From Paramecium tetraurelia (Eukaryota): 54,599 nucleotides of DNA. Below the pieces are notes generated by a model that saw only the letters and a program-made list of their open reading frames with translations, searched no databases and had not been told where the DNA came from. The translations under genes and the position numbers were made by a program. Of the stretch, positions 25,801-54,599 are shown piece after piece (within the stretch, counting starts at the first letter, position 1; every line of letters starts with the position of its first letter). The stretch spans positions 248,001 through 302,599 of the forward strand of contig CT867994.1 in assembly GCA_000165425.1 (NCBI GenBank). The letters run 5' to 3'.

Positions 25801-28800
25801 TATCACAAGAAGAACTGGTCTCGTTGTCTGAATCATTTTCAAGCCATCCTCTGAAATCTATGTCAGCAATCTAACATCTGGATCCGCTTGTTCCTCTGGG
25901 ATCTATGAATTTAATGGCTCTGATGTTATCCAAATCAGCCTCCTTATTGTGATGTTCGGGTTCATCATCTTTGTCTTTGCCACCGTGAGAGTTCTTTTCT
26001 TTTGAATCGTCGCATTTTGTGGGTCTTTGAACATTCCATCCTTTGTGGACATCGTCATCAATGGTGAACCAATCTTTGAAGGTTACACCATCAGTGGAAT
26101 ATTGGAATTTGGCTCCTTTCAAATAAGAGGCACCAACATCGATTCTAGGTAAGAAACTAAGGTGGTCCAATTTCATTTTCCTGTTCTTTCCAAAATCAAT
26201 TTACACCCAACAATTTGTAGCTGAATTTGAAACATGATAAGTAGTTTCGGATTAATCAAAGAATTTCTTGACTACACTCTTGTCTGTGACATCTGAAGTC
26301 ACTTAGAACTCCTCATGATCAAGTTTGTAATTCTTGGATTTCAATCCCTTCTACACCTTCTTAGCCCAAGCTGGGTTGAAATCTGGTACTCTGCATAAAA
26401 TGCTATGATAATTCACATTCAACAAGTCGCATTTCTTTCCACAAACCTTGACATTGTGACTCTCATGGAAACCATGACCATGAATCTCCAAATGTTTTCC
26501 TCCTTTGCATGATGCCTTGGGTAATGATCCACTCAAAACTGGATTTTAGAAGATGATCTTCTGGTATTACCATGTTGTCCACAAAGCTACTTTGTCATCG
26601 CATTAAACAACCACATCAAATTATCCCAAAGGCACATTGGCGAAGGAAACTTGAATCAATGTGGCATTACTAGATACAATGGTACCTACGATATCATCAA
26701 GTCCCTCTTTCTCCAAATGGACATCCAAAGTTGTAGCACCCAAATTAGTACCAACTATATTGAAAGTCAAGGTCTCAGTTGATGCATTGTAAGTATAAGC
26801 TGACTTTCCAGACACATAAACAATTCCAGCATTATTATTGATCTAAGTGATAGCTGGTTGACCAACATTGGTAACCTACAGATTGGTTGGGAATTAGCAA
26901 GATGATTTTGTTTACAAGTTCTTTCTAACGTCACGATAGAGTATTTTCACACCGTATCCAGCATTGGCTGTGATTCTTGGAGTTCTGCACTTCAATTTTC
27001 TATGTCCAGTCTTCTTCACTCTCAAACACTTCCATGTTCCAATGTACACTTCAATGTCATTGTCATCTCCAAATCCACTACCACTAATTTCGATATCCTA
27101 TCCACCTTGTACAACTGTGGTTGTTGAAATTGATGTAATTTGCAATTCAACATTAGTAATCCACATTCCAGTGGCATATCCAGTGGATGTCTGGATTCTT
27201 GTCTTGTACTCACCTTAAGGTAAATCAGGAACTGTATAGATCAATTAGCCAGTCTCTGAAATTGTTCCAGTTACTGAGTATTTCTCATTGAACACTACAG
27301 TGACTGATTATGAAGTTGTGGTTATGCATTGTATGTTTTCGACTTGATCAACTGTGTAATTCTTAACCTTATCAAAGATGTAATCGTTCCAGAAGGACAA
27401 GTCTCTTCTTGGACTGCTCTCATAAGTTTAGTAGTGACTAATTCCAGTAGAAGACATGGTTCTTTTTGGTTCTGGATGTTCTCTCTTTTGAACAATATAC
27501 TTTTAATAATCTGGTAATCCGAGTTGATCTTCAGATAATAATCTTGCACCTGCACTTGCAACTGAGTCAGATGGAGCACCACAGGATAGAGTCATGGTGG
27601 AATCATAAGTGAACTCGCAAGATCCTTGGCAGACTGAATCAAACAGAATTCTGGTTGTAACTATGACCCTTTGGGGTGTTGTGTATCTGAAATGCTTTGG
27701 TGGAGTGACACAGTACAATTCTGTTGAAGTGGAAGCATCTTCATCTAAATCACAAATCCAATTGATTTCATCACCAATAAATACGATGGTCTCTTGAGGC
27801 ACAAAATTGAATCCATTAATTTTGATTCTAGTTCCTCCTGCTTCACTTCCTGTAGCATTGTCAATACTGGTTATCACTGTGTTGTATTGGAATTTGTTGG
27901 CATCTCCAGCAGCTGTTGCTTCTCCTACTCCAGCTCTGTTCACAATGAATCTATATTCTCCTGGGAGACCTCCTCTCAAGTAAACAACTATTTGGTCATC
28001 TTTTACACTAACCACTGGGCATTAATATGTTTTATCTGCATTCACCAATTCTACTGTGATATCAGATGTGACTAATCCAAATCCAGTACCAATGATAGTG
28101 TTGAATCCCTTATAAATGGGAGTTAATATGGTCTCTTGCACTCTTGTGATCGTAATGTGAATTGTATGATCATAGGTGAAATCAGCATTTTGAGCTTGTC
28201 CATCCTTGAAATGCAAAACAATGATTGAGTCAGGCATTGACTCTACGTATGTTGGAGTCTTAATTACGACTTAGTTACTTGAGGTAGATTTGATGACAGT
28301 CTAAACTCCTCCAAGATAAACGCTTAAATCTTCGGTAATTTCTTTAGGGAATCCCTTGCCAAATAGGGTAACGACAGTGCCACCATCTTCTGATCCACTT
28401 GTTGGATTGATGTGGGTGATTATCAATGGGGCTTAGTAGGGAAGTACACTAGGGTCGATATCTGCATTTCCATATTCCTCATAGTGGAAGACTGGGAAAT
28501 ACTTTCCATATTCAAATTCTGTTCCATCGACAGTGCAAGTGAAATCGTATTCATAATCATCAGTTTAAACCATTACAATGTCATAGCAATCATAATCTCC
28601 GAAACTAATTGTGGAGAGGGTGTCATCCAAACTGTTTCCTAATGTAGTACTACCAACTGTTGATATGTGGAGACTAAGAGTAGTAGCTTCATCATAAGTG
28701 AAATCAGTCATGGTCAGTTTCAAATCAACTGGAGCATCCAAATTGCAAGCACCTTCTTGAGCACAAGCACTTAATAAGCCATCTAAAGTGATGGAAACGG

Positions 28801-31031
28801 TTGGTGTTGCTGAATAAGTAAACAATAATTCATTTGGAATAGGTTCATAGAGAATGTTTGAACTTGCTTCTTATAGAGTTGTTATGGTGACCTTGACTTC
28901 TCCATTTCCAGATATCAAGTTGTTGGTGGCAACTTTAAAGTTACTTAATTCTTGGACTCCCTTTATTTAGACTTTCCAGATGTTTCCATCCTATGGAGTT
29001 CCTTCATTCCAAACTATGGGTCTGTATCCAGTGGTTGCTTCAATTGCATCAGCTAAAGCAGAGGCACTCAAATCAAATGGTAAATCAACTGAATTGCTCA
29101 CCTTCAAGTATTGTTCAATGCTGTCATAATCAACATAACTTAATTGGAATGTACCTTCTATTGGAGTAGAGGGAGTTACCAAAATGGCTGAGGCCTTACC
29201 AATAGCACTGTTAGCATTAGCAGTGATGTTGAATACAAATGATGGTTTGACTTACACTTTTCTGTATCTTTAGAATGTGATAACATATCTGAAACCAGCA
29301 AATGTGGTGGCTGTTTAGTCCAGTAATTCTTCACCAGCAGAATCCACTTTGGTGCTGGCAACTGTCACACTGTAAACTCCAATAGCATTAATGGCTGATG
29401 CAACTTGTTCAGCAGTGGCAAGAGTTGAAAGCCATCCTGTACTGTAAGAGAATGCTGGATTTGCAGTTGTACTTGCGAAGACCAACTGATATTGTCCTGA
29501 GAGTTTAGTGTCTGCCAAAGAGTTAAACACCTTGTATTCGACTTCCTCCTTGATTGGATTGTATGAGGTTGAAATACTGTAAAGAGCACCTACTGAGTAT
29601 TCAGTGAATGTTTCGTCCTCGATTTCTACTGATACAGTGACATATCCTGGACCAGCACCATTGGTATGATTGATTTGTAGTTGATAGTATTGGCCCTCTT
29701 CAAGAGTGATGTAATCTGATATAGAATTCACTGGGGTGCTAGAAAATTCACTTTGCCAGTAGTTTCTATATCCTGATAGATTGTTTTCGGCAATCAATTC
29801 TAATTTCGAATTATCGATTGATGATGGATTTTTATTCAACTCAACAGTGGCTCTGTCGTCTGAGGCTACGTAGAATCTATAGGATCCTGTCTTTGGAGCC
29901 TTGAAGAATCCTTTGAACTATTCGTTGTAGTAACTTCCATAAACATTTTGGACATCTGGTTCACCAATAAAGTCATTCTGATAAACAGTGTTTCCCCACC
30001 ATCTCTTATATCTAAGACCGCTTCCATCTGCATAGGCTTCCTAACCGTGGATGGTGATGTTGAAGAATTTAACTGTGATGGTTGATCCGTCATTTCCAAC
30101 AACTGCTGTGTTTTTCAATTGGAGTTATCCTCCGACATAGACTCTGACTTAACAGGTACCATATCCGAATCCAAGACCATATATACTCAACATACCTCCT
30201 TTCTTGGACAACACCTTGGTGCTCAAACCTGTAATGACTGGGAGGATGATTGATTGATAAGTGTCTGTGGTTGTGGTATATTATTATGATACTGACACAC
30301 TATTTTGTTGATTACCATTGACTGTAGTTATGTAGATTGGGTAGATGCCAGCTATGCCATCAGTGGGTACTTAACATTTAATAATGTCATCATTGGCATC
30401 AATGTCTGATTAAGAAGATTAGCTTCTATCACAAATTTAATTGTCAAATTAAATCTATAATTGTGCACTTGACAAAGAGCTAACCAAGAATTTACCTCTG
30501 AAAAAGGTCCATTGACTGGGGTAGTTAACTCTTGGACTTACAAAATAAAGTTGGCTTGTCAAAGATTTCAAATAAGTAAAGTAACAATAGACGCCTGCAG
30601 TGCATGTAGAATCTGCAGATCCTGTCACTTTGATTACGATTGGGAGTGATCCAAGACTATGGTCGTCTGGCTTGACTTGAGAGGTAACACAAATGATTGA
30701 CAACCCTGAAACACCATTTTCAGGCACTATGCAAGGGTATGTTCCTACAAACACTGCATTTTTAGAGACAGTAGTACTCAATCCAGATGCCTAATAGTAG
30801 TTTAAAAATAAATTACTTGGATGTATAAGGTTGTTCCTCCAGCCAACGAACCTTGAGGGATGGCAGCTGATGTGGGACGGCAAGATGCGCTTGTAATGAT
30901 CACAGGAACTACGGTTTTAGGTTTAGTTGTAGTCTTGGTTTAGGCTTGAACTAATAAATATGTATTTGGTAATTCTTACTCTCTGCCACGAAATAAATGA
31001 AGAATAATGCTAAAGAAAGATATTTTTACAT
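19836..31031 (-). CDS. Giant type-I membrane protein, fibrocystin-L/PKHD1L1-like (IPT/TIG repeats, PA14, F5/8-type-C-like, two G8 domains, parallel beta-helix repeats), ~3,700 aa
   Basis: Signal peptide MQKYLSLALFFIYFVAE; TIG motifs GSLAGGTTLYI, GSEAGGTRIKINGFNF; PA14-like KGFFKAPKTGSYRFYVASDDRA; F5/8-like WVQIDFG...GAKFQYSTDG; G8 starts RWSDIKTWGG (~25470) and KWSDVSIWPNGKLP (~23056); AAFWITNPKNTF beta-helix; TM NILLISVICAVGGVVLISLIISGALW; three introns seen (~30951-30979, ~30792-30816, ~20724-20748); ends VQYNI-TGA. Confidence 0.9.
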
Positions 31032-31323
31032 GTAAAATAAATTAATTATTGATTATATGGTGTTGATCAATCCCTTAAATACTCAACGAATCATATTTTT
31101 TATAAATTTAGATTCGTTTTTTTCTAGATTAGTCTCAATCAAATGAATCCATATCAGTAATTAATAATTAATGTAATTGGTATTCCTCCTGCGAATATTT
31201 GCACTTCCTCCAAACTTAGTAGGATTCTCATTACTGAATTGATTTTTCAAGGTTTTATCATAATCCAAATTAATTCGAGTGATCAATTTTCAACGTTTTT
31301 ACATTTATATATATATCAAATAT

Positions 31324-34300
31324 TCATGATTTATCTAACCTCTTCAAGGGTCTATCCTTGTCGTGACTTTTCTTCTTTTTGGGTACTTGTCTACTTTCTG
31401 TTTTGTTATTTGGATTTCTTCTTTCCTCTGAATGTTCCTTGTGATTGTATTCCTCATGCTCCCCATCGCCTGCTTTCCCCACTGATTTCATTTTTTCCTA
31501 ATTTGGCGCCTACTTTTTTGAGTCGTGGGCAGTGCTAGTCAAGTTAGTCTTGGGAGCATAAACTGGTAGAGTGTTGATTTTATCTTCAATATGGAAATTC
31601 TTGATCTAAGTTTTGATGTCCTGAATGTGACCGTAGTCCTTCTCCACATCTTATAAATATATTTTAATATATTCAGCCACTTGCTGAGTCGGAGGAAAAA
31701 TATCTTAAACTCTTTTCAAAAATATCAAGGCATTCCGAACCTAACCCATAACCATTACTACATACCTGAGTCTCATTATTTTTCAAAATTCGTATGAACT
31801 GGGCCATCTTGAAAAAAATGTTTTAAATTATATACTGTTTCTCCCTGTCGTAACCATCGATTGAGGTGTCAAAGTAGTTTCTCAAGTCGTTCTTGAACTT
31901 AGTCTCGTCATTCCAATTCGCATACGGTATGATCAGTTACTACATAAATATGCTCAGATTCGAGGCCTCCTCTTCAGTTGCACACTGCAAATATGTAAAC
32001 GTGAAATAGATGATCTCCTTGGGTACATAGAAGGTGTAAGTGTATCTAGGTTTCCCAATCTTCAACATTTTTTGTACAAACTTCGCACAATATATTGCTT
32101 CCGCAGGATCTATCAGAATCCTCGGTAACAAACAAACTTATGATAGACATTAAGCAAATTTGATATGATAATTCTCCTTCGCTTGATCAGCCTCCTTGAA
32201 ACTAAACACATGTTTCTTGTCTCTCAAACACTTGTCGAATTACTCCTGTCGTTTTTTGTTGTTGTCCAACTCATTCTGCAATTTATCAAATGCTTTTTAA
32301 TGCTGTTTGCTCTGCCTGTCCTTCGTATCCGGATTCTTGTTGATGTTCTCCTGCAGCCACTTCAACTATTAGTCATAAATCGCCTATGGCACATAAATAT
32401 TATCCAAACTCAACAGCCAAAATATCGCAAACAACTCGGGATTTATAATCGTCCACAAGATGTCCTTCACATAAGTATGACATATCAATGGCAATTGCTG
32501 AACCTATTGATTGTTTATGTCCGGATTGATGCACATCACCTTAGGATCAATCTTATCGTAGATGTTCTTGATGTTGTCCACCTCCTCCTGAAACTCCTCC
32601 TCACTCATATTATACAAACTTTTGTAACTGTATCTCACAATATGGAATGCAATCTCAAAAGGCAATTTGAAATCGATCACCATCCTCTCTAGTGGATTCT
32701 CAGGGAATAGCTAGGCATAATGAGTTGGCTTGTCAGTTTAAAACAACAAGCATTTGGTGAGTTGATTGATGCTGCAAGTGAAGTTATCATACAATGCAAC
32801 CAAAGGTTTCAAATTTTGATTATGATAATTCAAAATGAATCTCGATCTCTATTAACACAAAACCACCAGCATCAAAAATGCCAGCGAAACTACCTCTTCC
32901 TGATTATTTTGATTCAGGATTCTCTGTGAATTTATGGTTTACGACCAAAAGAACTGTTCCAAAGCACTAGAACTTTTTCTAGACCTCCTAAACTCGTTAG
33001 TTTACGAAGTAGTTTCAAGCTAAATGTACCTTCCTCCTGCCAAAGCTTATATTTATTAAGGTGTCAGATCCTCAATGTGGACTATTCCTGTCATCTTTTC
33101 AATCAATTCCCTCAATATGAGAATTTCTGGTTTTATGATGGATTCGTTCTTACTTATTGAGGGATTGCTTTGATCAGTAGAAAATACATCAATCAAATAA
33201 GCAAACAACCCTTGCATATCAATAGTATAATATTTTCTTAGTACACTTGCTATGAATTATGCAATATTCTTAAACCAATATCTGCATTCTATGTCTTTGT
33301 CTCGAACTTTGGATTCATCATTGAAATCACAAAGCCATTGTATCATTATAAACTACAATATGTCCAAAGATAAAGGAGTTGCCAACCCTAAAGTGTGAAC
33401 AATCACTGAATTATTATCTGGTATTTCTAATCTGTTTCTCCTTAAAACATTCATTACGATCATTGGTTGGTTGTGAGATAGTTTAGCGAACTTCACCATC
33501 ATTTTATCCTTGTTATCTTTATCAATCTTATTAAAAAAGCTTCTAATGTGTTCTTTAGTAAGTTGAGCAGCTCTGATTGTCTGGTTGATGGTAGAAAATT
33601 AATGGATGTCTTTCCATTTTGAATAACAATCAAATCTCTTACGAAAGTCCAATTGTCCCAAGTATTTCCATAGTTCTATTACAATAGGTAAACATTCTCC
33701 ACTTTGGACAGCTGGAATCAAGTGATCAAGAATCAGAGGTTGGACATCAGGATTTTAGGATGATATTAACACTTTAGACAGCTTGTGAAATACTAAAGGA
33801 TACTCACCAATATATGGGGAAAATATTGATAAGATCTCATTCAATATGGATATTGCATCTTCGTCAATAACTTCTAGCTGTTTTATTTAGAAGGCTGTAG
33901 TACAATCTGGATCATATATAAACTAGGTTGAGTAATTAGTATAATTACTTTCTTTTGTTCTCTAGATCTACTCTTGAATAGAGTTTTGTTATATAATTAC
34001 TCATGTAATGGATCGATCATCCAATCAATCAAATCTGCCAGAGTTCTTTTGATTGGTAGGAATATTGTAAAGTCTACTATTCCTTCAAAAGATTTATAGA
34101 GCTCCTGAAATATATTGAAAGCATTGATATGGATTAATCCTTGCATCAACCACAATTTTTAATTGTCTAATTTAAATATAAATTAAAAATACATAGTTAT
34201 TGTCCAAATAAGTCTTTCTTCAATTTTTCTGATTGGTCATTGTTGTTTCTTGAATCTCTCAATTCCTCAACTTACATGACTTAATCAAACGATTTGTAAA

Positions 34301-36921: not shown

Positions 36922-37217
36922 ATTACAATATTAAATATTATGAAGTAAAAATTATGTTAAACACAAGATTTTCACCCTAAAGAATTTTTTATGAATAGAA
37001 TGAGCTTCAACATTCTTGAAATTGTAGCCAAGTCATTTAAAAGTAATATAATTAGAGATTTTATAATCAAAATAATATTTTTACTGCTTAAATCGACAAA
37101 CATAAAATTAGATGACAATTCAATAAATGATTTCAAATTTTGGAGACTTTAAGCAATTGAATCACTTCTTTTTTTTAAAGAAATAAAATTTCTATTCGAT
37201 TTTTTTTGATAGATTGG

Positions 37218-38615
37218 ATGGCAAAAATAATGCTCATTGATATATAATAACCTGAAATTTGTTGCTTTGTTTGTTAGATTAAAGTTGTAGAATTATTGAG
37301 ATGCTCACAATTCAAATCATTATATTACTGTTCAAAGAATGCTAAAAGTAAGGATTGGAAACAACATAAGTCTATTTGTTCTGAAATACAATTACAATTA
37401 TAACGAGAAAAACAAAGAGCAGAAAGAAGGTATAAGGGAAGAAAGATATTGAAGACCTTGCTGATTTTTAGACTGTCCTACAGGGAAAATTTTCTGTAAT
37501 CTTTCGGGTTAGGGATATTGAAGCCAATTAATTTTTTGCTTTAAAGTAGATTAATAAAAGAAGGTTTACCTAAGTAAACAAGGAGAAAGATTTATTCATG
37601 GAAAAACATTGTTTAGGCAAACTTGCTGACTGCCCTTATGTTATTAATATTTTATTCAACCTTTCAGGATGCTGAAAATCTATACATGTAAATGCAGTAT
37701 GTTGAAGGTGGAGAATTGTAGCCACTAGTTAAAAATTTTGGAGCTTAAGCTTTTCCTCTTTGTCTTTACTATATAACTGAATTAATCAAAGGTAATTATG
37801 AAAATGAGGATAGCCATAAATTCCATTCATAAGCTTGGGACTGTACATAGAGACATAAAAAGTGAAAACTTGCTGTTAACTTAAGAGAAATAAATAAATT
37901 TGATTGATTATTTGGTACTGCAAGAGATATGAATCATCCCACAATCGAAGGGAATGGAAATGGAAGAGAAGGTAACAAAATGGTTAAATATAATTATAGG
38001 AAAATAAATCAGGAAACATTTTGTGTGAACTCCATACTTTATGGCTCCTTAATGCATTAGAAATAAAGATTCCAATGAAAAATCAGATATATATTCCTTA
38101 GAAATCCTGTTCTATTATATAGTTTTGGTAAGTACCCCTTTGATGGAAAGAGTGAATACCTTATTTTTAAATAAGCAACTGAAGAAGAACTCAAATTTCC
38201 AGATGGATGAATTGATAATGAATAGTTTAGGAGCCTTATTAGGAGTATGATGCAAAAGGATCCATTAGACAGATCAAGTTTAGCAGAAATAATGCAGGAT
38301 CAGTTGTGGGGCGAGAATTTTGATTGGAAGGCTCCACAAGGTATGATTGATATTTCTAATAAGACTATTAGACCATTTTTAATAGTTTGAATGAAATTGA
38401 TAATTTACCTATAATTTAGGATTAGAATTAAATAGTGCTTTAAAGTTGAATCATTGTGTTGGTCTGAAGTAAGAGGCTGATAGGGAATTTTGAAATATGG
38501 AAAATTAATGAAAGATGAAAATTACTAAAAATGAGTTGATTATATGAAGTAAGTAGTGGAATAAGATCTGAAAGAGATGAAAGAGGATAAGGAAAAGCCT
38601 TTATATTTTGTTTGA
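37218..38615 (+). pseudogene. Disrupted MYND-finger plus AGC (PDK1-like) protein kinase gene
   Basis: CFVC...RCSQFKSLYYCSKE(C)...WKQHKSIC (MYND; one Cys replaced by Phe). Kinase motifs FSTFQDAENLY, VEGGEL, HRDIKSENLL, FDGKSEYLIF. Lesions: 2-nt insertion in DFG (gatTAtttggt, 37906-37916), TGA replacing Gly in FVGT (38026-38028), APE changed to APQ. Confidence 0.82.
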
Positions 38616-39593: not shown

Positions 39594-40897
39594 ATGAGAT
39601 TGAATGAATTAATAAAAGTTATTTTAATAAAAAGGCATCACTCTATTAAAGAAACTAATTTCAGAATGTGAAATCCTATAAGAATATTTAGGATAGCCCA
39701 GAGATTAGTCATGATTATATTATTCGCTCATCATCAATTTGTCTTATAGATAGTAATTTGCCAACACTTCTGAATCTACTATTTTCTTTACACATTCATA
39801 TAGGTTACTTAAACCATCTTTGAAAGGTAACTATTTGAAATATAATAGTGTAGCCATAACAACTACTAAAGAATATGTTTCATCAAAAAAAATAAAGCAG
39901 ATAAGAAATTAAATTGGTAGATCTGAAGAAGTTTAATTCCTTTTCAAAAGAAACTAAAGTGCCTTAAAATCTAAAAACTATCAAGAAGGTGCCAGAAATA
40001 ATTGATAACTTAACCAAATAATTATAATTATACTTTAAATTTGATTTCTCTTTTAGTTTAGAAAAAGCCTACCCGAATTTATTTATGATGCTTGCTAATC
40101 AGAACCAGATTTGATAACGAGATGAGGAAGGATAAGTATGACCCTTGCCTATTTTGGTGCAAAATGGGGTAAAGGAGTCTAATACTGATCAGATGGTTCT
40201 TACTATGAAGGCTATTGGAAAGATAATAATAAAATGGGAAGGGAAGACTTATCCACGTGGAGGGAGATGTTTATGAAGGAGATTGGAAGGATGACAATGT
40301 GCATGGCTATGTAAGTATATTACTGACTACATTATGGCAAGTTAACTACGTCAAGTGGTGGATATTATGTAGGATAATGGATTAATGACAAATAGAATGG
40401 TTAAGGCAAAGAACTATGGCAAGATGGAGCAAATTTTTAGGGAAATTATGTTGATGGAATAAAATTCGGTTAAGGGATATACACAGTTGCATATGGTTCT
40501 TAATATGTGGGAGAGTTTGCAGATAATCGCTTTTGCGAATATGGAACATAAAATGCTCAGGTGGGACTAGATATGCAGGGTAATGGAAGTAAAATAAATA
40601 AGCGGATATGGGGTAAAAATATTTAAATTTACTCCAAGGAATTTTATTAGAATGATGAATCTAAATAAGTTGGAGAATTCTTTAATGATTTAAGAGATGG
40701 ATATGGCACTTTCTATTACGGCCATGGAAGAGTAATTATTTAGAATATTATTATATATTTATAAAGGGTAACGGAAAAATGGAAAATGATATGGAAATGG
40801 AACTTATATTGGAAAAAAAATATTGAAAAATAGAGCAAATGGTAAAATGGAGTATTTGATATTTGGGAGAAATAATATACAAACTCAACTGCTGGGG
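39594..40897 (+). pseudogene. Degenerate MORN-repeat protein gene
   Basis: [72 protein letters not shown], with frameshifts (e.g. ~40230, ~40550). Ends are approximate. Confidence 0.7.
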
Positions 40898-41081
40898 ATA
40901 ATTCTTTATTTCATTGAGTTGTTTTTTCGAATTTATATTATGCTATAAATAAATCCTGTTAAATTTGAATTTTTGGAATAAAAAGTATTTTTGAAATAAA
41001 TTATTTTCAGATTTTGAATCTAATTTAGCTATTTGATAAAATAATTTATATAATTTCAATTTTAAAAATTTGAAACCTCAA

Positions 41082-42604: not shown

Positions 42605-45600
42605 ATGTTTTCCTTTAATTAATGTTGTTTTTGTTAATTTTTTCCTTCTAAATTTATCACTTTATTTAATCTCTTTTGCTAAGTTTTCATCTAGAATTAA
42701 ATCAGAATTTAATGAATTAAGTAGATGAACAGATTATAAGGCTTTTAGACTATTGCATCCCATGTTTTTAAAATCATTCTGATGGAATCAAATTTATTAT
42801 AAAGTATATTTGAATACCTAATTGCTGCTCTAAGTTATGAACTTTCTTCGTAAAAACAGCTGAAAATTTTAAGTATTGTGCGGCTGGCTAGGAAGATTAT
42901 GAAAATTATAATACAAATCTAGTAGCTCTTGGAAAACTATGTTGCCAATAGTACTAAATTAGTTACTATATAACGTGTACTATACTAAGGACTTATTTGA
43001 AGAAATACATAAAGTATAGATTAAAATTAGCATATAACAGCACTATTACGTTGCGGAAGTTAATTATATCTAAGAATAAACAGATCATACACATCTTGTA
43101 GCTCTGTATATAGATGCTGTACAACTAGTATGGAAAATTGTTAAAGCTAATATATGAGAAACTAACTTTTTATTGTTCTGCCTTCCTGTTGCTTGATATG
43201 CCCTTCCTGAATTTAGGTGTTCATTAAAATCAGTTGCTTATCATGTTTACTATAGTTGTCTATACTGATTGAATACTTATAGGATGCATCTTTTTAAAGA
43301 TTTCTTGCGGAACTTGTAATACCTGAGGATTCATATAAATCAAGTACTTAATGTATATCAAGTTTGAGCGATTTAAGCTAGATATCCATATTTTTAATCA
43401 CTGTATACCATAAGTGAAAATCAAAACTACAACATAATACCAATTGAACCAACTTTTTGTTTGAATGCAAATGGTCCATTTCTGAAAAAAATTACTCTAC
43501 TTATATTATTGAATTTGATTAAAGTTCGAATATATGTATTAGATTTCTACTACTATTTTTATATTGCTCAATAGCATTATTGTGTGGCAAGTGTTGATAC
43601 TATATACTATGCTAATTAAGTTATTGCTGAGACAGAAATCTTATGGTTTGTTTTCTCTTCAGAAATCTCGACAACAGGATAAATATATGGTGAATTGTTC
43701 ATTAATTAAATTTTAACTTTTGAATTCCTAACTGTTTCAGCTACTGGAACTCTCAGTTGCGAGTTGCGAATTTCGAATTTAATTTATAAACATAGGTCTT
43801 GTTTCTCGGTGTTAATTAGTGAGCTTCCTAAAAGACAGCAATGCATCTGATACTTTATGCTAACTATTTTGAATCTTGTACACATAAACTGCTACCAACT
43901 ATGGTTTTGATGCATGAAAAATTGTTAAATTTACAAACTGATCCAACAGTATTTGTTATTCAGCATTCTTGTATCTTTAAGAATCTTATCTAAATTGCTC
44001 TTCTCTAACCTTACAGGTTAATAGATATAGTCCTGCTGAATTTAGATCATGTATTTATAGCTACTCTTTTCTACATTAGAGAAATGTTATGAGGATCCAA
44101 ATTTAATCTTAAAAGCAAACCAAATACATTGTTTCTATTGATCTTCTGCCTTACATTAGAATAAAAAAGTAATTCTGGACCAAGAACCAAATTATATGTA
44201 CTTCTTGTATTGCAAGTTGCCTTTGAAGTAAGTCTTCATATATTTTAAATAATTTCACTATAAAGGTTATTTTTCTAGTGATCCTGAATAGCTCTGCTCT
44301 TCTTATTAAACCAATACGACCAGGCAGTACAGAAGCAGTGCTTCCTAGGTTAAACTTGGGATCTTATTGAGGCAGTAGCCATTCTTAAATATAGTAATGA
44401 GTGGGTACCATGTTTATCTACTACAGTATCACTTATGAAACAAACTACTAAATGATGATTTATTGTGTATGAGATTTACTAGCACTGCATGGGTTATTTT
44501 CCAAGATGTTTAAAAATAGATTTGATTCTTATGCTCAATCTATCGCTTAAAATATTATGATATCGGTGCTTATTTCTCATTACATTTAGGCATCTATTCA
44601 GCATATTCTTCGTGCAACTTATGTGTAATTTCTTACTTCAATCTTGTTAGAGACACTTTCCAGATATTTATTAACTTCTGATCCTCTCTAAAATGTGAAT
44701 CCTGTTTAAATAATATTTTCATGACCACCAAATGTATCAATAATTAAAGGATCATTCCAAACCCTTTTAATTACTAATCTGTAAGATGGAACCAGATATC
44801 TATAGAATAATGTTACCTTTAATACTTGTTGTTGTCAGCTATAAACTCTAACATTCAAAACTCTTTTTTACTTTTTGTGTTTCCTATTCAATGGTGTAAC
44901 ATTTGTATTTCTAGTTTATGGTTGTGATTCGATATGTATTAATAGTTTTAGTTATTGACAGTTTCGAAAAAATTTGATTTTTTTGAGCTTCACACAACCA
45001 ATTATGGTTTTACTACTATGAACTTAAATTATCATATGTTTTAATCATTATGCTGCACCTTGAAAATACTCAAATTTTTATAAACAATTCTATTTAGATC
45101 AAAATAACTATCTCGAATTTAGAAGTCGATGGATAAGATTTTAGACAGTTAACTATATTTTATTTTGCATCAATATTATTCTCACATACTGATACTAACA
45201 ATATAAATATTACTGCTATGTTAACCTAATACCACTCTGATGGAAGTTCCGTATGTTCATTCTCTGGTAGAAAATGGCTTTGCTATGAAAATAGGTTCAG
45301 TCTTTAAGTGGATAGTATATATAATTACAAATAAGATAGTGCAATTCTGATATGAATCAGCTACTACATGTTTAACTTGCAAGATATAAAATAATACTAG
45401 TTACTATGTTGACAAATTATGAATAGTATCAAGTTATGTTAAATGTTCAAATTCATATCCATATTTTAAAAAGTGAACTCAGAATGTCAGTGTCCATTAC
45501 CCTGTATTATTTCCTTTTCTTTAGTCTCAGTCATTTCGCTGCATGTAAGAAAAATGTAGCCGGTTTCCGTCTCAATGACAATTGATACATGTTAAGCTTG

Positions 45601-45660
45601 CCTTCTTGTAACTTCCTTTTGGCCATTAGATAAGGATGGCATTAATTTTTGCCATCCACA
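42605..45660 (+). pseudogene. Highly decayed Cys-rich surface/membrane protein gene
   Basis: Scattered Cys-spaced fragments and coding-like composition, but frequent TGA; I could not find a continuous frame. Boundaries uncertain. Confidence 0.4.
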
Positions 45661-46329
45661 ATTCATGTTGATATTTACAATACAGGAAATATGCGTCATA
45701 TTAATCAAAATAGACAACCTTATACATTGCAAAATAAAGTAATGGGTTCAAAAGCTGATCAAGCCCACCATACTCGCAGAAGGATAACCCAATAAATAAG
45801 GTTCAAAATCAAAACTCTAGCTCAGCAAAATAGAATTACAAGGATGATCTTATAAAGCCATCTTTAATATTATAATTCTACCTGTAAATTATAAAATAGT
45901 GAGGCTATTCAAGTTATGACGATGATTCGACTAGATGAGACAGTTTATTCAGTCGTTATCCATCTTTAAAATGATGAACTGCATATTCAAAAATGATCCT
46001 CCCTTGTGAGTCGATGTTCATATAGATGATCAACATATCTATGTATTTCATGCTGGGAATTATCACATAACTTAATGGCTACATATGTCTTTAAATTGTA
46101 ATTTATTACCCTTTATAAATAAACTATCTATCTCTAATTCATAAATGTTCAAATTAATGTTTACTAATAATAATTTTCTGCAAATTCAATCCAATAATCA
46201 TTTTTTTTGTCTTATTAGGTAAATATTTCTCCACCTCAAGTATTAATATATCTTGAAGCTATTTTACATCAACTTAAAAGGTCTTTTATGATCACCTTTA
46301 AATTTATAATATATATGCCATTGACCTAT

Positions 46330-47060
46330 TTTTTGACCATTCAGATAAGACTCACTAAATTAAATTTAATTTCCCCAAAAAATAAAATTTCTATTAGATT
46401 CATACCTACTAAAATGATCGTTCACCTCAACCCAATTTCCCTATTTTAAGCCCTTCTCGTCATACACACCTCCGTCACTTTAAAATTATTATATAATTTT
46501 CTATACATTTGTATTTTTGTATTATCTTCTATTTCATGATAATCGATTGTCCAAACTCCATTTTTTATACCATTTTATTATTCACCTTCATAAGTTATTT
46601 AGCATCAACTTTAATTAATTTGAATTAGTTTGATTACTGATAAAAACTTTCAGATATGTGTATCCATTTACTAAATTTCAAACCCTGTTCATTGTTGTAT
46701 CCTCGTTAAGTAAAATATGATAATAATTATATGTTACGTTTCATCATCTTCATGTAAATTTCCAATATCCCTAAAGTTAATTAAGCCCTTCTATTAGCAG
46801 TAATCAAATATAATTTACATTCTGAAATTATTAATCGGCAATTTCCAAATCCCTTATTTCTTCCCATTAAAATACAGTTATTTCTATATGTGCTTTACTT
46901 TACCATCCTCCAACACGTTTCACTATTTTTCCCTTCCCCTATCCCTTTCCTACTTTATTGTATCTATCTCTTGTCCTAATAATTTTATTCCACCTAGGCT
47001 AAATCACTATACTAGGCTTGATATTCATCCATCTTCTATTTTATTTTACCTACCAATTTT
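46330..47060 (-). pseudogene. Remnant of a GGxYD...KxGxWxE (MORN-variant-like) repeat gene
   Basis: Minus-strand fragments GGVYDEKGLKQGNWVEVNDHFSR, EGEQQNGIKNGVWTI, KFSKWIHISESFYQ; disrupted. Confidence 0.6.
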
Positions 47061-48869
47061 CTTAAGTAGTTTAGAATTTCAATTTTAATAATTTGTTAAA
47101 ATGAATTGCCATAAAAAGCCATAATGCTCTTATGTTCCTTCTAAATTAATACAAATCTTAATTTTTGGAGAATACAAGTAACTCAAAGCTTTAAAATTGT
47201 TAGTTATTATGCAAGCAACCATTTTAGTTAAGAAAGACTGTTTATTTATTCAATCCAAAAATAAACTTTCATCATAAACTATGTATATTTGCTTATGATA
47301 TCAGGAGATTGTATTTCATAAGCTTACAAATTATATCGATATCCAGATCTAGACTTTCACAAAATTTAAAAAATAAACTTCCATTTATGGAAATTTAACA
47401 GAATAATACTTAACATTTTTCATTCTTAAATAAACTATAAGGTTTTCACCTAAAAGTTAAGAGAAGATCTTCTTATTAATTGAATTAATTATCCACTTAG
47501 ATCACTGCTATTCACTCTTGTTTCCATTATATTTCTTTAAATTAGTACATTTCATATGCTAATTCTAAAATTATTAAATTAATTCTCTTTGAGGATTGTA
47601 TATGAAGAGATCGAATTGCAATCAGATATAATTAATCATCTAATTTATTTTTAATGATCCTGCCTTAGTATGACCATCGTCCGTTCGCAGATTCGTAAAT
47701 TAATTCTATCTGTGAAGGCTAAAAAATAAGGTTATTGAAAATGGATTCGATTAATTTCTTTGTGAATAAGCCGAGTTCTCCTATTTTTCTTCAGACTTGG
47801 AGAACTAAATACCACAATTGATTCGAACTTAAAAGACGATCAATAAATCCTATTTCTTTTCTTCTTAATACTAAAAAGTTATTATAAACTTTGTCAAAAC
47901 CAAATTTAATGATTTTGAATTTTTTGGAAATTATATACCAGAAAACTCATGCATAAATATCAAATAAACCTACTTGACATAAATCTATAAAATTTAACAA
48001 AATATATATTTAGAAAATTATTAAATTAAGGAATTTTTTTAGATGCAAAACTCCATTAATCAATTACCTAATATTTTTCATAAATTATTTCAAATACTAT
48101 CAAAATTATAAAATTATAAAAGGTTGTTGGCAAAATCTACAATGATTTTCATTTATGAAATTCTTTAATGATTAATTTCAATTAATTATGGTTTTTTCTA
48201 ATCCTTTAAAAAAATTTTAATTAATCAAAATTTAAAAATGAATACTTTTATTAATGAATATTTTATGTAGATAATTATACGATAATTTTATATTAAAACA
48301 CTATCATCTATTTAGTTTTATTAATAAACATCAAATATATTGTAGAAGAACAATGTGTTTTATCTTGTTATTTTGTGATTTAAGAAAAAATGACTTTAGT
48401 TTGTTTCTAATTTATATGCTTTAAACCATTCAATTCTTGACAAATTTAAATTATTATTACATTATAATATCGTGTTATATAAATAATGATTGTGAATACA
48501 AGATGGCTTCATCATTTATCAAGTAAATAAAGCTAATGTATATTCTAATCTCTTAGACTTAGTAAAAAAAAAAATCGCTTTTAGGAAGCCGAATAATTTT
48601 CATGTCCACTAACACCATATCTAAACCTTATATAAAAAATGGGTCAACGAGTCGTCAAAGTTCCCGAGAACATCAATGTGACAAAAAATAGATTGCAAGT
48701 TAATTAAATTTTCAAGTTTTACCAGAGTTGAAATGAATAAATTAGAGTTTTAGCAAGCATTAATTCTGCTAATTTCAATTTAAAATTCATCGATATTTAA
48801 CTACAAATATCATTACAATTTGGCAGTAGAATCATTCAGAAAAATTCAATAAATTTTCCTCATTGATAA

Positions 48870-49260
48870 TAGCATGCAATTACTAATTGTATAACAAGAA
48901 ACAATTCAAAATATAACTTTTCAAAGAATTTATCATTCAAAGCGGAAAAAGATATAATGTATCTGAATAGAATGAAGAATAAATGGATTAATTTGATTTA
49001 GCTATTTAGAAAAACCCAAAAAATTCACAAAATTATGATAACAATTTAAATTCAAGTGAATTTATTTGGCCAAAATTTTAATGTAAGTGGATAGGTTAGA
49101 AGAAGCATTAGAATGTAGTGATTTAGTTATTTAGAAAGGCCCTTCAAATTCACTATATTATCATAGAAAAGGTAAATAAAGAAGTTAATTTTTAGCAAGC
49201 ATATTAATGTAAATGAATAGATTAGAAGAAGCATTAGAATGTAGTGATTTAGCTATAGTT
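48870..49260 (+). pseudogene. TPR gene fragment with two near-identical repeats
   Basis: RLEEALECSDL encoded twice (ttagaagaagcattagaatgtagtgatttag at ~49096 and ~49222, 126 nt apart) with a ~24-nt intron between; no intact start or stop. Confidence 0.65.
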
Positions 49261-50028
49261 TATTATTCGATCTAATAAAATTAAAAATGTATAAATTATT
49301 ATAAATGTTTTTTGAAATTTATTAAAGCATATAAAATCAATTCCCAAAAACTTTTTGAACCTAGATAAATATCAGTTTATTTCTTTCAATTTTAATTTAT
49401 GTTACTTTAAAATTATTATATGGTAAACTTTATACTTCTTTTTGAAAATATTGCGATTTATATCTTCTATTTGTAAGTGAAAAAAATACAAATTGAAATC
49501 TGTTTATTTGACTTCTTTCAGATCTATCTTAAATTTAGTTGCTGATTTGCAACCAGACCATTTAAAAAATTTAAAGCAGATCAGTATTCGCTTTGATCTG
49601 TTCAATCACATCCTCTTCAAAGCAAACTTGATAAAAGAAATTTCTGTGAGAATAATTCATAGCTTTTGCAAAATAAGAAATGCCTACTCTCGATTTAAAA
49701 GCTTGTCTGAAGATCTTTACGAAGAAAAGCCTATTTTATTGTACATTTTTATCAAGAAATAATATGATTATAAGTGCATTAAATCAATTTAAACATCATG
49801 CTTAAGGTTGAAAACAAGTAATATAATTTTAAATAAGCATTAATTATTAGATGTTTCTTTTCGAAATAAAATAAAAAGTAAAAGAGAATAATTAATTTGT
49901 AGTAGTTTAATTATGATTAATCTTTTAAGCTAATATTTCTAATTTATATTCTGATAAAATTCTTAATAGAATTTCGTAATAGATTTAGCTGAAGAGTTTT
50001 GATTTAATCTTGTAAATATTTAAAAAGT

Positions 50029-52022
50029 ATGCTTAAAAACTAAAACACAAAACAAGTAGTTTTAATTGGATACATCGGTCACGGTAAAACAACTCTATTT
50101 AATAAAATTTGTAAAAAAAATCAATCAGTATAATTTGGAGGAACCGATGCGTCTCTTCGTTATATAGCTGTTCTCTCATCGCCGTCGCCTCATATTGTTT
50201 GGATTACATTTTACTCTCCTTCNNNNNNNNNNNNNNNNNNNNNNNNNNNNNNNNNNNNNNNNNNNNNNNNNNNNNNNNNNNNNNNNNNNNNNNNNNNNNN
50301 NNNNNNNNNNNNNNNNNNNNNNNNNNNNNNNNNNNNNNNNNNNNNNNNNNNNNNNNNNNNNNNNNNNNNNNNGCTACCGCGCCGGGCTGAGAGGGCGTTG
50401 GCCGACGATTGCTCGGACAGGTATCGAGGAGCTCGACTACAGATCACGCAGAGAGAGCTGAGGCGAGATCCGGTAGATGCTGCGAGGGGAAGGCGGTAAT
50501 ATTTCTGGTGCGAAGCACGGAGTTTTGGTTGGACGCTCGGGTCCCGGTTTAACCATCTCTATTTTATAAAGTCTGTACAAAAACTCAATCAGTATAATTT
50601 GGAGGCCCATCCGTCACTAGGGAATCAGTTCTTAGTTAAAGTGCATATGGAGAAGGTTTTGATTTATTCTGCACCCCTGGTTTAGGGTCAGATTAAGATA
50701 AATTGGCACATGTAATTTGCATTGCTGCAGCCTTAACAGTTGGATAAATTCATCAAATTTTAATAGTTGTGTAATTAGAAAGGTTGGGAACAATGAAGCA
50801 AAAGCTAAGACCAATGATCTAATAGTAATTTAAGAGATTTAAAGATATTATCACAGTTGTTGTAACTAATTGGGATAAAGCAGAACAACCTGAAATAAGA
50901 AAAAAAGAAATGGTTGATTTGCTTAAAGATTATAATATTAAATCGTTGATATTTGTATCAAAAGAAACAGAAGGAAAAGAGTTATGTCAAATGATTGAAG
51001 GAATTCTTTAGAAATGTGATTAACAAGGAAAAAGTTGTTAACTAACTTAAGCTGAGATATAATCTTATTTTGATATTACTGATTTGTAAGATGATGTGAT
51101 TGATTAACTAAATGAAGCAAAAGGGAAAGTTAGTGCGAAATTTGATAAAATAGCAAAATCAATAAAAGGTTTCATTATGAAATTTTCTGAAACTGACCCA
51201 GTCATGCCAGAAGTTATGCATCAATTAACATTAGCTATTAAAGAACTTGCGGATGAAACAATCTTAAAATTTCAAAAGGAAAATATCCAACTTTTTAATG
51301 ATTTATATACAAAATTAGAAGATGAGAACTTAGTTTATATAATTGATGCATAATTAAAATAAGAATTGGTACTTTAAGTAAATGGTTTGATTTCCCTTGC
51401 TTAAAAAAAGATGAAGCTATCCTAAAATTAATGTTTTAATTATATTAGACAATGCCCCCATTGCGGAGAGATATGGATGAAAGTCTTTGGATGTGAAGAT
51501 GAAACATTTTGTGGAAAATTACCAGAAAAGGAAGCAGAACATTTCAAATAATAGAAGACTCCCAGAAGATTTAAATTTTCATTCTAGGAATCTGGAGTTA
51601 TATATAATGATTTACAAATTTCATTTTTGAAACTTGATACCAGTAATTAAATATAGAAATAAAATGATGCAACAAGGATGAAATATTAGAATATGGAAAG
51701 AGGACAGAGTTTCTTTTCTAAATTTCAGAAACAACTTATTCAAGATTCCTCATAAAATATAGCACCAAGCTTTCACATTTTCCATTAAATTTTATAAAAC
51801 GGTGTAGATTAGGACAAAAAGGGTAAGGTTGGTTGTGGAAAATCATTTATATGGCATGAATTAAAGCCTCTATCTGAAGAAAAGTTAAAGGAATTGCTGG
51901 ATCCTGGTGTGTTGGATTATTTGGCAAATGTAGTAGATGAGGAGAAAAAAGCTAAATAAATGGAATTAGCGACAAAAATTGAAAGTCTTTTGAAAACAAG
52001 CAAAGTACAATTTTTAGAATGA
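50029..52022 (+). CDS. P-loop GTPase (AIG1/MMR_HSR1-like) with helical linker and C-terminal Cys-rich motif; interrupted by an assembly gap
   Basis: MLKNQNTKQVVLIGYIGHGKTTLFNKIC (Walker A), SVTRE (G2), LFCTPG (G3-like; Cys instead of Asp, near low-quality sequence), VVVTNWD (G4), then QCPHCGEIWMKVFGCEDETFCG...GCGKSFIW; TGA 52020-52022. Confidence 0.8.
50143..50580. other. Assembly gap (N run 50223-50372) with low-quality GC-rich read-end flanks and a false duplication
   Basis: 50057-50141 and ~50521-50605 are noisy copies of each other; both end in tcaatcagtataatttggagg, and similarity degrades toward the Ns. Confidence 0.85.
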
Positions 52023-52138
52023 AATGAATATTCATCAAACAAATCAATAGTTTTTTTTTAATTTTGCTTTTCTTTTTTAATAGAATTAATAACATATTAT
52101 CTGCATGAATTCAAATTTTTTACTATTTTATTTTTATT

Positions 52139-54208
52139 ATGTAGCCTCTTATTATATTTCTTGGTGAAGGTAATTCTTATAAGGATTCATTATTTTAATT
52201 ATTACCTACAGAATTTAAGGAGATTGTATTTGAAAATTTGAAAATAAAGGAGAGAATTGATTCAAAGGGTCCAAACCTTTTATTAATTAATTTTCCAGAA
52301 GAAAAAGAAATATCTAAAGCACTTTATTCTTTATTAACTTTATCATAGTATTTTAGAATTACATAGATTGTCTTCTGTTTACATTATCATTAGACAATCT
52401 TTGAGAAAGTACAAAATATTGAAAAATGGATTAATAAAGAGTTATTATTGCATGCAGAAAATATTTCTACATATTTTATCAGTAATTCCCCTTCAAGTTC
52501 TTAAATTAAAAAGAGCAGAATATATTAATTTTAAAAAATTGATGAATTAAATAAAACAAATATTATTAGAATCTTTGAAGCCATTTGCTTTCAAAACAAT
52601 AACTGCTCCTAAATTTATTTATAGAATACATTATTGTAGTAATAAAAAGAATCATTAAGGTAAGGAGCAAATATGTTATAAAAATAATTTAATGAGCAAT
52701 ATTTCTCCATTAATGCGGATACTAATTTAGAAACTTAATTAGAGGCTAAATTATAAAAACTCTTATCTAAAGAAGGTTAACCATAAATCAAGACTAATAT
52801 TGAAATATAAAATAAAGATATCGAATTAAATCAAATCATACTATATAGCAATGCAATTTAATAGCTTTGTTTTTTAAATTCCTAATGGAACTAATATCCA
52901 TTAGAGTTTTTCGGAAAATGGTTCTCAAATTATTTGTATTGTAGTACTTGCAAAGTATTATATAAAAAGGAAGGCGATAAATCAATATCTTATGAATTAT
53001 CTTTATTCTCATTAGATCAAAATGAAATTGAAATTAAATTAACAAACCATAAAGATAAATGTTTTAGATGCCAATACTATCTTACTTAAAAGATTGTTGC
53101 CGTTCTGCCGATTATAGAAAAAATCTATTATCTTGCATAAATTAAAAATCATTTGAAAATAAAAGAATTGTATCATAAAAAAGCTAATAACTTATGTACT
53201 TAAGAAAGTAAATTATAAATAAGACAAAAAGTAAACTAAATAGCTGTTTTTGTTTTGAGTGATGAGGAGGGACTAAAAGAATTTGTGATGAAAAAGGTAT
53301 ATGATGATAACAATTACAAAGAAAGTAATCAATTCAAGGAAGGTCAGATACTGGATGATTCCTTTCATCTCATTGATACTCCAATATTTTCTTTTGATGA
53401 GGACTCAGATTAGTTAGAATCTATTTACTCTAATTATATCAATGTTAATCCTATTAATTTCATAATATTTTGTGTTAAGTTATAAAGATCAAGTTTAATT
53501 AAAGAGAGACTTTTAATGATGTTAAAAAAATTTCCCAATATTAATAGATAATCATTTAGTGCAGTCATAATTGATTAGAATAATGATATTTCAGAAGAGC
53601 AATCGTCTATATATGATAGCATAAATAGCGTCAAAGGATTAGTTCCATAGGCTGCTCTTATCTAAAATAATAATTCAAGTGTGGATGTTATCAAAAAAAT
53701 CTCAGAATTTATTATGAATGTTGATCAATAAAAGCCGATATCATTTGAACAAACAATATTTTATAAATCAGAGGATGAGGCAGATAAGAACGAAATTGAA
53801 ACATCTTTAATGTTAATAACTTAAAATATTAAAGATTAATTTAAATAAAGTTGTGAACAAGAATTAAAAGATGAAGAAGCAAGGCAAGTGGTGAAAGAAT
53901 AATTAAAATAAAAATTACTTTAAAAAAAATCTTCTATGGCAATATAATTTTAAGAGAAATAAAAGGAACTTACAGATATTATCAATCAAATTAAACAATA
54001 GCTCAAAATAGAAGAAAGTAATTACAAAAATGCTGTAGACATTTTGAATGATTAACTTTCTAAAATTGAAATGGATTTAATTAATTCCAGATTTAATATA
54101 ACAGAGAAGAAAACTTAATTATACTAATTGGAATCTTAGAAAATTAAAATGAATCATTAATATCATAATTTAACCGTAAATTAGAATAGGAGAATTAAAA
54201 ATAGATGA
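52139..54208 (+). CDS. Apparently intronless 689-aa protein with two degenerate GTPase-like domains, a CxxC..CxxC motif and a C-terminal coiled coil
   Basis: Start and stop 2,070 nt apart in one frame: MQPLIIFLGEGNSYKDSLF; NYLYCSTCKVLYKK...KCFRCQYY; IAVFVLSDEEGLKEF...FHLIDTPIF...FIIFCVKLQR; E/Q/K-rich tail; TGA 54206-54208. Confidence 0.72.
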
Positions 54209-54350
54209 TTCTATTAATATTTTTATACAACATTTAATATAAATTACTTTTAAGTTAATTTTTTTCTCATAAAAAAATCAGCAAAATTTTTGGAGTTGGT
54301 ATTATAACTATTTTTTAGTATTTGTAATTTTCGAAAGAAAAATTATTTAA

Positions 54351-54372
54351 AGAGAGAGGAGAGAGAAAGAAA
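54351..54372 (+). repeat. Purine-rich (GA)n-type simple repeat
   Basis: agagagaggagagagaaagaaa in the intergenic region. Confidence 0.5.
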
Positions 54373-54599
54373 AGAATTATTTTTTCGTTTAGAAAAACAT
54401 TGTCCTAATTTGTGTAAAATGAGAATAATGCTCAAAAAAATCATTTAAGTCATAGATGATAAAGCAAAAAATCCCCAGCGGCGAATTTCGGAAGACCTTC
54501 ATACCCAATTACCTGAATTTTGTTGCTTGCTAATTAGGTGAAATTATACCCATCTCTTAGCTTAATAACGGTAGTAATTCGACCTGAAGTTAGTTAGGC

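Follow-up and report, generated by a model that had tools for sequence, protein, structure and literature searches.

The window analyzed here is a 54,599-nucleotide stretch of Paramecium tetraurelia DNA (assembly GCA_000165425.1, contig CT867994.1, positions 248,001 to 302,599) which carries, at positions 50029 to 54208, two neighboring genes: a GTPase gene with a five-cysteine domain (gene 1) and a gene for a putative double pseudo-GTPase (gene 2). Its base composition is AT-rich and long open reading frames (ORFs) appear under NCBI table 6; a reading under table 11 was rejected in favor of it, since table 11 gives zero ORFs of at least 100 amino acids in positions 44000-54599. Both genes lie on the plus strand and both end in TGA. 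They are co-oriented and separated by a spacer of 116 bp (52023..52138), as a first-pass annotation made from the sequence alone had described. That annotation also took both genes for intronless, which is confirmed by comparison with orthologues and, for gene 1, by an RNA contig as well, and all the motifs it quoted are found in the window. What it overlooked was an assembly gap in gene 1 and the resemblance of the Cys motif to the Rcat domain found in ubiquitin ligases of the RBR type. The close relatives of both products all come from species of the Paramecium aurelia complex.

Contrary to what had been assumed, gene 1 as it stands in the window is an interrupted ORF, its P-loop and its SVT motif being in different frames. 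The 5' part (50029..50142, plus strand) holds the start codon, strand beta1 and the G1 P-loop GYIGHGKT at 50068-50091, while the 3' part (50607..52022, plus strand) holds the G2 motif SVT, G3 (50670-50681), a conserved Arg after beta4 (50781-50783), the G4 motif TNWD (50865-50876), a helical region, the five-Cys domain and C-terminal helices. The 464 bases between them (50143..50606) consist of a run of 150 N at 50223-50372, degraded GC-rich read tails (GC content of the flanks 0.36-0.75 per 50 bp) and a duplicate of gene 1 5' sequence. A direct repeat of 55 nt, 87% identical, straddles the N-run (50087-50141 and 50551-50605), and the identity of its two copies drops outward from a common core, as is expected of degraded read ends. 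Four sequencing runs were aligned to positions 49700-54400: X1 and X6 (DNA-type), X20 (RNA) and X24 (raw reads, 26 placed). In the contigs of X1, X6 and X20 position 50142 is joined straight to 50607 with zero letters between, no read of X24 crosses the joint, and both bins wholly within 50143-50606 have zero depth in all four runs. The segment is an assembly artefact which occurs in neither the DNA nor the RNA contigs of the organism; an insertion element or an intron is ruled out because DNA-type and RNA contigs alike skip the segment and nothing maps inside it. The window also differs from all four runs at four positions near G3 of gene 1. There it reads CTPG, which was rejected as a genuine change because all four runs encode DTPG. 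The corrected gene 1 is a single ORF of 1530 nt, coding for 509 amino acids, with one stop and with G1-G4 intact, and its three orthologues are likewise uninterrupted.

The GTPase motifs G1 (GxxxxGK[ST]), G2 (Thr), G3 (DxxG) and G4 (TxxD) are present in gene 1. Its 5' part matches the Pfam family MMR_HSR1 with 22.3 bits at a cut-off of 21.9, and MMR_HSR1 is above its cut-off in 3/3 orthologues, in all of which it outscores AIG1. AIG1 itself exceeds its 27-bit cut-off in two orthologues (38.1 and 36.4) and is unlisted for the third. We collected the family with a profile built from four close sequences, which gave 551 representatives at E <=0.001, 150 of these listed, and from those listed we picked 100 near-full-length members for the family alignment. 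An AlphaFold model of a gene 1 family protein made with the 100-member alignment reached a pLDDT (predicted local distance difference test) of 83, and Foldseek matches of rank 1-10 to it were GIMAP7 and GIMAP2 (GIMAP7 with E 1.6e-9), while VIA-align gave a tie between FeoB (Z 16.4, root-mean-square deviation 3.0, 158 residues aligned) and GIMAP7 (Z 15.9, deviation 2.7, 174 aligned). Searches of PDB sequences with the window proteins of genes 1 and 2 gave nothing meaningful. The earlier view of gene 1 as a GIMAP/AIG1-like GTPase is thus upheld by the Pfam scores of the orthologues and by the fold search.

The family is found in eukaryotes. Its Atlas clusters are 98-100% eukaryotic, the members with a species name (28 proteins looked up) come from five Paramecium species and Physarum, and among the neighbors at family loci in metagenomes (23 ORFs scanned) are a poly(A) polymerase, a BET bromodomain protein and telomerase. 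In viral contigs 61 pattern matches were obtained and zero were confirmed, and the BFVD matches were generic G domains. The G1 or G3 pattern fails in 12/148 full-length G domains among the collected proteins. The Arg after beta4 is present in 89/100 aligned members; it may correspond to the arginine finger of the GIMAP conserved box. Arginine fingers acting across the G-interface have been described for septins and are said to occur in GIMAPs (PMC11238149), and paraseptins form head-to-head dimers (PMC5084822). The likeness to GIMAP/AIG1 proteins (GIMAP7, GIMAP6, GIMAP2, GIMAP8) extends to the G-domain fold, the T-x-x-D form of G4, the Arg after beta4, the helical extension, the occurrence in gene clusters and the existence of multi-G-domain members such as GIMAP8 (PMC8201404). 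They differ in that identity is only about 17-18%, MMR_HSR1 outscores AIG1, and in gene 1 the five-Cys domain comes after the helical region. The gene 1 family is therefore a large eukaryotic one with a GIMAP-like G domain, a helical region and a five-Cys domain, and on the modelled fold gene 1 would work like a paraseptin/GIMAP GTPase, yet as a family of its own and not as a textbook GIMAP. We found no description of this family or of a GTPase-Rcat fusion in the literature, where subscription papers were mostly beyond reach, so that a prior description is possible; term look-ups in PMC8857920, PMC8136499 and PMC11354881 gave none.

Several family members have other architectures. One (P0151) joins the G domain to ankyrin repeats, another (P0126, on a 99,960-bp contig) has a long unannotated N-terminus, and two (P0028, P0066) have N-terminal coiled coils and lack the Cys domain. 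Four proteins (P0037, P0053, P0108, P0143) form a double-module clade, with G-helix-Cys followed by G-helix, in which the first G domain is decayed to varying degrees; two of them, P0037 and P0053, may form a gene cluster. At the metagenomic locus L022 (495-7371) family genes stand in a tandem array, where a 222-amino-acid ORF occurs twice with identical profile scores, and in locus L005 (990-1955) a member has a duplicated N-terminal segment with a dead P-loop ahead of an intact one.

The five-Cys domain of gene 1 is split. Its first half (51453..51515, plus strand) reads C-x2-C-x9-C-x5-C-G, with the third Cys (51492-51494) at the position of the catalytic Cys of RBR ligases, and its second half (51831..51854, plus strand), G-C-G-x2-(I/F)-x-W, follows after a variable insertion. 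In the family the pattern is C-x2-C-x9-C-x4/5-C, an insertion of 44-268 amino acids (median 58) and G-C-x3-(I/F)-x-W. The first half was seen in 98 collected proteins and both halves in 80; all five Cys occur together in 83 of the 91 members that cover all five columns, and a Cys stands at the RBR catalytic position in 92/99. The steps from Cys to Cys are +3, +10 and then +6 (89/98) or +5 (9/98), with the last Cys later. In fly Parkin RING2, zinc site I is made of C436, C439, C454 and C459 and the catalytic residue is C449 (PMC3709501, PMC3305615), which gives for C436-C439-C449-C454-C459 the steps +3, +10, +5 and +5 (PMC3709501). The family thus matches the spacing of zinc site I and of the catalytic Cys in RBR Rcat/RING2 domains (Parkin, HHARI; Pfam IBR_1, PF22191), while it differs by the 44-268 amino acids inserted ahead of the fourth ligand, by the lack of the His at +2, of the triad Glu, of zinc site II, of RING1 and of IBR, and by the fusion to a GTPase. 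Both the catalytic His and the triad Glu are required in Parkin (PMC3709501).

This domain could be a purely structural zinc ribbon whose likeness to Rcat is a product of convergence or a non-catalytic remnant, and we consider that slightly better than an even bet. Only 3/100 members have a His at +1..+4 relative to the candidate Cys, 6/100 have a Glu at the triad position and only 3/81 have Cys at the positions of zinc site II. On 30 motif segments generic zinc-ribbon Pfam families matched seven and IBR_1 four, three of the latter among five segments picked for the Rcat-like +5 spacing. The top IBR_1 score, 20.7 bits, is below the cut-off of 27, the Cys motif of gene 1 itself has no IBR_1 match, and only one of 18 whole family proteins matched IBR_1 (E 0.038). 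No RING family was found in Pfam scans of gene 1, gene 2, their orthologues and those 18 proteins. Two motif profiles compared with the PDB gave no RBR protein, neither among the two matches of the first nor among the best 60 of 203 of the second, these being mostly CxxC knuckles and a viral protease. What does not fit a plain ribbon is that five rather than four Cys are conserved, and in Rcat spacing, that no Pfam family gives a better E-value than IBR_1 (3.9e-4), whose match extends across the entire first half (profile positions 2-25 of 47), and that IBR proper lacks this Cys (PMC11354881). Fold searches with the whole model were filled by G-domain matches; the strand order of the model in the Cys domain is compatible with Rcat. 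Between the G domain and the Cys motif 94/100 members have at most three Cys. Since the catalytic His, the triad Glu, zinc site II and RING1/IBR are missing and no RBR appears among the PDB matches listed, the family is not an RBR ligase by membership, and its zinc domain may be derived from, or resemble, the Rcat of these ligases. That the candidate Cys has transthiolating activity is rather doubtful.

Fusions of a nucleoside triphosphatase (NTPase) domain with a ubiquitin-ligase module exist in RNF213 and RNF112, in which AAA+ or dynamin-like motors are combined with RING or RZ modules, and the G domain of RNF112 was among the Foldseek matches of the family model. For gene 1, ligase activity is only a hypothesis. 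The family could combine a GIMAP-like GTPase with a split Rcat without RING1 into a minimal GTP-gated ubiquitin ligase (E3), with gene 2 as a pseudo-GTPase/pseudo-ligase brake or adaptor. Ubiquitin, or a ubiquitin-like protein, would then be transferred through the conserved free Cys when dimers of the G domains form on a target membrane, gene 1 would mark intracellular invaders as RNF213 does, and dead partners beside or fused to live copies would have evolved several times. We regard this proposal as unlikely.

Gene 2 (52139..54208, plus strand, 689 amino acids) keeps an open frame, as the first-pass annotation had claimed: its 689 codons include zero TGA where about 13 are expected by composition (P ~2e-6). 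The N-terminal pseudo-G domain (residues 1-155, 52139..52603) has GEGNSYKD in place of G1 and NFPE in place of G3, and lacks the conserved Arg. In the middle region lies a CxxC (C268, C271; 52940..52951) that is invariant in 4/4 orthologues, but the candidate catalytic Cys has no counterpart there. The C-terminal pseudo-G domain (residues 366-545, 53234..53773) has lost G1 (LSDEEGLK), reads D[TS]PI at G3 and keeps the conserved Arg (Arg450, 53486-53488) in 4/4 orthologues; the coiled coil (53774..54205) ends the protein. A GxxxxGK[ST] P-loop is absent in 4/4 orthologues, and with G3 reading NFPE and D[TS]PI gene 2 has presumably lost nucleotide binding. Over gene 2 the window differs from the runs at 53252, 53366 and 53474 (V372L, H410Y, V446L), which are either errors or strain differences.

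Gene 2 had been described as repeating the layout of gene 1 in decayed form. Of this the two dead G domains stand, in the proposed register, by HHalign against the family profile, while for the helical region this is not demonstrable and the match of the Cys motif does not exceed chance. The alignment of residues 370-545 spans 173 columns and sets VFVLSDEEGLKEF opposite the P-loop (probability 80.9), and the C domain alone reaches a probability of 93.3, with E-values from 1.3e-5 to 2.8e-7 across runs and a score reached by 0/30 shuffles. Residues 2-120 align over 115 columns in register with a probability of 10.9 and an E-value of 0.0028, a score reached by 0/60 shuffles. As far as sequence profiles can tell, the C-terminal dead G domain is firm, and the evidence for the N-terminal one is weak, though better than any of the shuffles. 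In the middle region the best alignment sets the CxxC of gene 2 on that of the family; the best local alignment to the family Cys motif, NYLYCSTCKVLYKK, is equalled by 7/60 shuffles, therefore homology of the CxxC is a matter of position only, and it is a probable remnant of the Cys domain. If the two genes were unrelated and the likeness of motifs a chance one, it would be understandable that gene 2 and 2/3 of its orthologues match no Pfam family at E up to 1 (the third has a coiled-coil match only) and that the AlphaFold model of gene 2 from four sequences is unusable (pLDDT 39, fold search giving coiled coils only). Against that stand the HHalign result for the C domain and the Atlas, where the P. 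octaurelia gene 2 orthologue and the gene 1 orthologue share their three top clusters by features (0.90 for the first) and where a structural G-domain match, obtained with a weak model, covers residues 361-543 (TM 0.63, by target), with another structure row on residues 1-195. This reading is largely refuted and we give it next to no weight. BLASTP between the two products gives one weak segment (E 0.001), and a profile search for further relatives of gene 2 recovered only the three known orthologues.

Those three orthologues are 76, 52 and 50% identical to gene 2, and full-length products of 675-691 amino acids exist in four species. Conservation, measured here at the protein level as a proxy for selection (percent identities), is strongly uneven and follows domain borders. 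Between the window and P. pentaurelia/P. primaurelia it is 54/55% in the N-terminal and 67/65% in the C-terminal pseudo-G domain, the linker reaching 31/36% and the coiled coil 41/37%; between the latter two species the values are 98%, 91%, 89% and 73%, respectively. The best 60 columns hold 46 identities, reached by 6/2000 permutations, and positions 405-470, around the family Arg, show 73-91% identity. Could gene 2 nevertheless be a decaying pseudogene with a frame as yet unbroken? It is less conserved than gene 1 (50-52% versus 66-70% to the same two species), has little RNA and has a weaker codon-usage score (-0.089 versus 0.018). The same in-frame score is, however, far above those of the off-frames (-0.42 to -0.57), and together with the full-length products in four species, the domain-wise conservation and the sense-consistent RNA reads on gene 2 in X24 this makes decay very improbable. 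The pattern of protein conservation favors purifying selection on gene 2.

In P. primaurelia and P. pentaurelia the orthologues of genes 1 and 2 lie on equal-sized contigs with accessions two apart, with an intervening gene model possible, and synteny of the pair among these Paramecium species is to be expected. Beyond them, a survey of metagenomes covered 53 loci, only 16 of them at least 4 kb long, and five had at least two family genes. At one of these, L001, from a eukaryote with the standard code, an intact dead member of 363 amino acids, in which Arg and G4 are kept while G1, G3 and the Cys domain are missing, lies beside a live one (746-1837 on the minus and 2263-3654 on the plus strand, divergent, 0.4 kb apart). 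The live neighbor is its best match (31%) and its sister in the tree (support 99/91), therefore this arrangement arose independently of gene 2. Recurrence is thus seen, but with an intact dead partner at only one of five multi-gene loci. In two proteins, P0108 and P0143, a degenerate G module is fused to a live G domain.

A mechanism can be proposed from what is known of the GIMAPs. GIMAP6 is unable to bind GTP and uses the G-interface to inhibit GIMAP7, and the silent GIMAP2 is activated by GIMAP7 (PMC9111091), so a GTP-blind member that regulates an active one is a feature of that family. It differs here in that the P-loop of gene 2 is lost outright in two tandem domains, and the partners are ~25-30% alike at best. 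Gene 1 would be a paraseptin-type GTPase which switches by head-to-head dimerisation of its G domains, as the GIMAP and septin precedents suggest, and gene 2 an old duplicate of the same family whose G domains, unable to bind or hydrolyse GTP, are kept as docking surfaces. The C-terminal pseudo-G domain, better conserved and with the Arg, would attach to gene 1 or to paralogues of it and control the GTPase cycle there, either by blocking the GTPase, as GIMAP6 does with GIMAP7, or by lending the Arg in trans, while the coiled coil would place or oligomerise the complex. Such a GIMAP6/GIMAP7-like arrangement is, by analogy, the best-supported model, and that gene 2 regulates live members of the family has, in our estimate, a probability of roughly 0.45. 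Directly supported are the gene structures, the family membership, the loss of motifs, the conservation and the recurrence of a dead gene beside a live one at one other locus; binding between the two products, the direction of regulation and any role of the pair in defence are inferred, and the active/inactive module and the membrane remodelling suggested by the first-pass annotation are likewise hypothetical. The text of a transcriptome study of Caedibacter infection (PMC5814942) contains no mention of GTPase, GTP binding, AIG or ubiquitin, and one supplement, besides which others may exist, has none of five paralogue identifiers.

The first-pass annotation had invoked the IRG proteins, clustered GTPases of the p47 type in which the non-canonical IRGM members regulate the canonical ones. 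GIMAP6/GIMAP7 is the closer precedent: IRGM keeps its P-loop with a GMS change, whereas gene 2 is without any P-loop, and no IRG family is listed in the Pfam scans of genes 1 and 2 and their orthologues or among the fold matches listed.

Several observations weigh against regulation of gene 1 by gene 2. In limited searches P. sonneborni yielded only gene 1 and P. octaurelia only gene 2. Four of the five multi-gene metagenome loci have no intact dead partner (three have live neighbors and one a fragment), and tandems of live genes, one of which (P0160/P0013) is in P. tetraurelia itself, are commoner; since such tandems exist, clustering needs no partnership, and tandem duplication and synteny account in part for the adjacency of genes 1 and 2. 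Neither the N-terminal domain of gene 2 nor the first domain of either fused protein has kept the Arg, and since the R134D mutant of GIMAP6 still inhibits GIMAP7 (PMC9111091), a kept Arg need not be the regulating feature. In the tree gene 2 is not placed beside gene 1; its branches are very long (3.2-3.5) and, as long branches meet, the placement is unresolved. RNA run X20 covers gene 1 by a contig of 1446 nt at depth 91.9 and gene 2 by one piece of 209 nt at depth 3.7, contig depth being a poor measure of expression, and X24 has a few sense-consistent reads on each gene. Both genes seem to be transcribed, and stoichiometric co-expression is not supported. The unequal RNA cover, the loci without dead partners, the long branches and the only slight preference of the gene 2 C domain for gene 1 orthologues (among the best profile matches, 23.6 bits versus 18.3 for the next) would also suit a selected pseudo-GTPase which acts apart from gene 1, as a scaffold with partners of its own, and stays next to gene 1 as a relic of tandem duplication kept by ordinary synteny in the aurelia complex. 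This is a serious possibility, somewhat short of an even chance, to which the independent pair at L001, the fused P0108 and P0143 and the position of the conserved part of gene 2 around the family Arg run counter.

Elsewhere in the window, upstream of gene 1 (48900-49550), there is a degraded TPR-like sequence (TPR_1, E 1.9e-4) which scores low for codon usage and contains a short unit in duplicate, and downstream of gene 2 the segment 54231-54331 matches several other contigs at ~85-90%, being a dispersed repeat or motif. A minus-strand ORF of 3452 codons (20711-31066, GC 0.38-0.39) has repeated beta-rich units and may be a fibrocystin/G8-type surface protein. Other genes are those of THOC2 (31676-34000) and a TPR protein (13990-15396) on the minus strand, and of an EF-hand protein (5583-6947), a MYND-finger protein (37161-37862) and a MORN-repeat fragment (40327-40914) on the plus strand.

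The analysis corrects a gene split by an assembly gap in this reference, and it points out that hundreds of clusters labelled only as G domain-containing carry an unrecognised five-Cys domain. If the free Cys carries ubiquitin, the family would represent a new E3 architecture, a GTPase with a stand-alone Rcat without the His or RING1. Regulation of live GTPases by dead ones is already known for vertebrate GIMAPs and IRGs. If it holds for the Paramecium pair, which sits in a genetically tractable organism, the double pseudo-GTPase of a ciliate and the recurrence elsewhere would mean that the same logic has arisen repeatedly in microbial eukaryotes.

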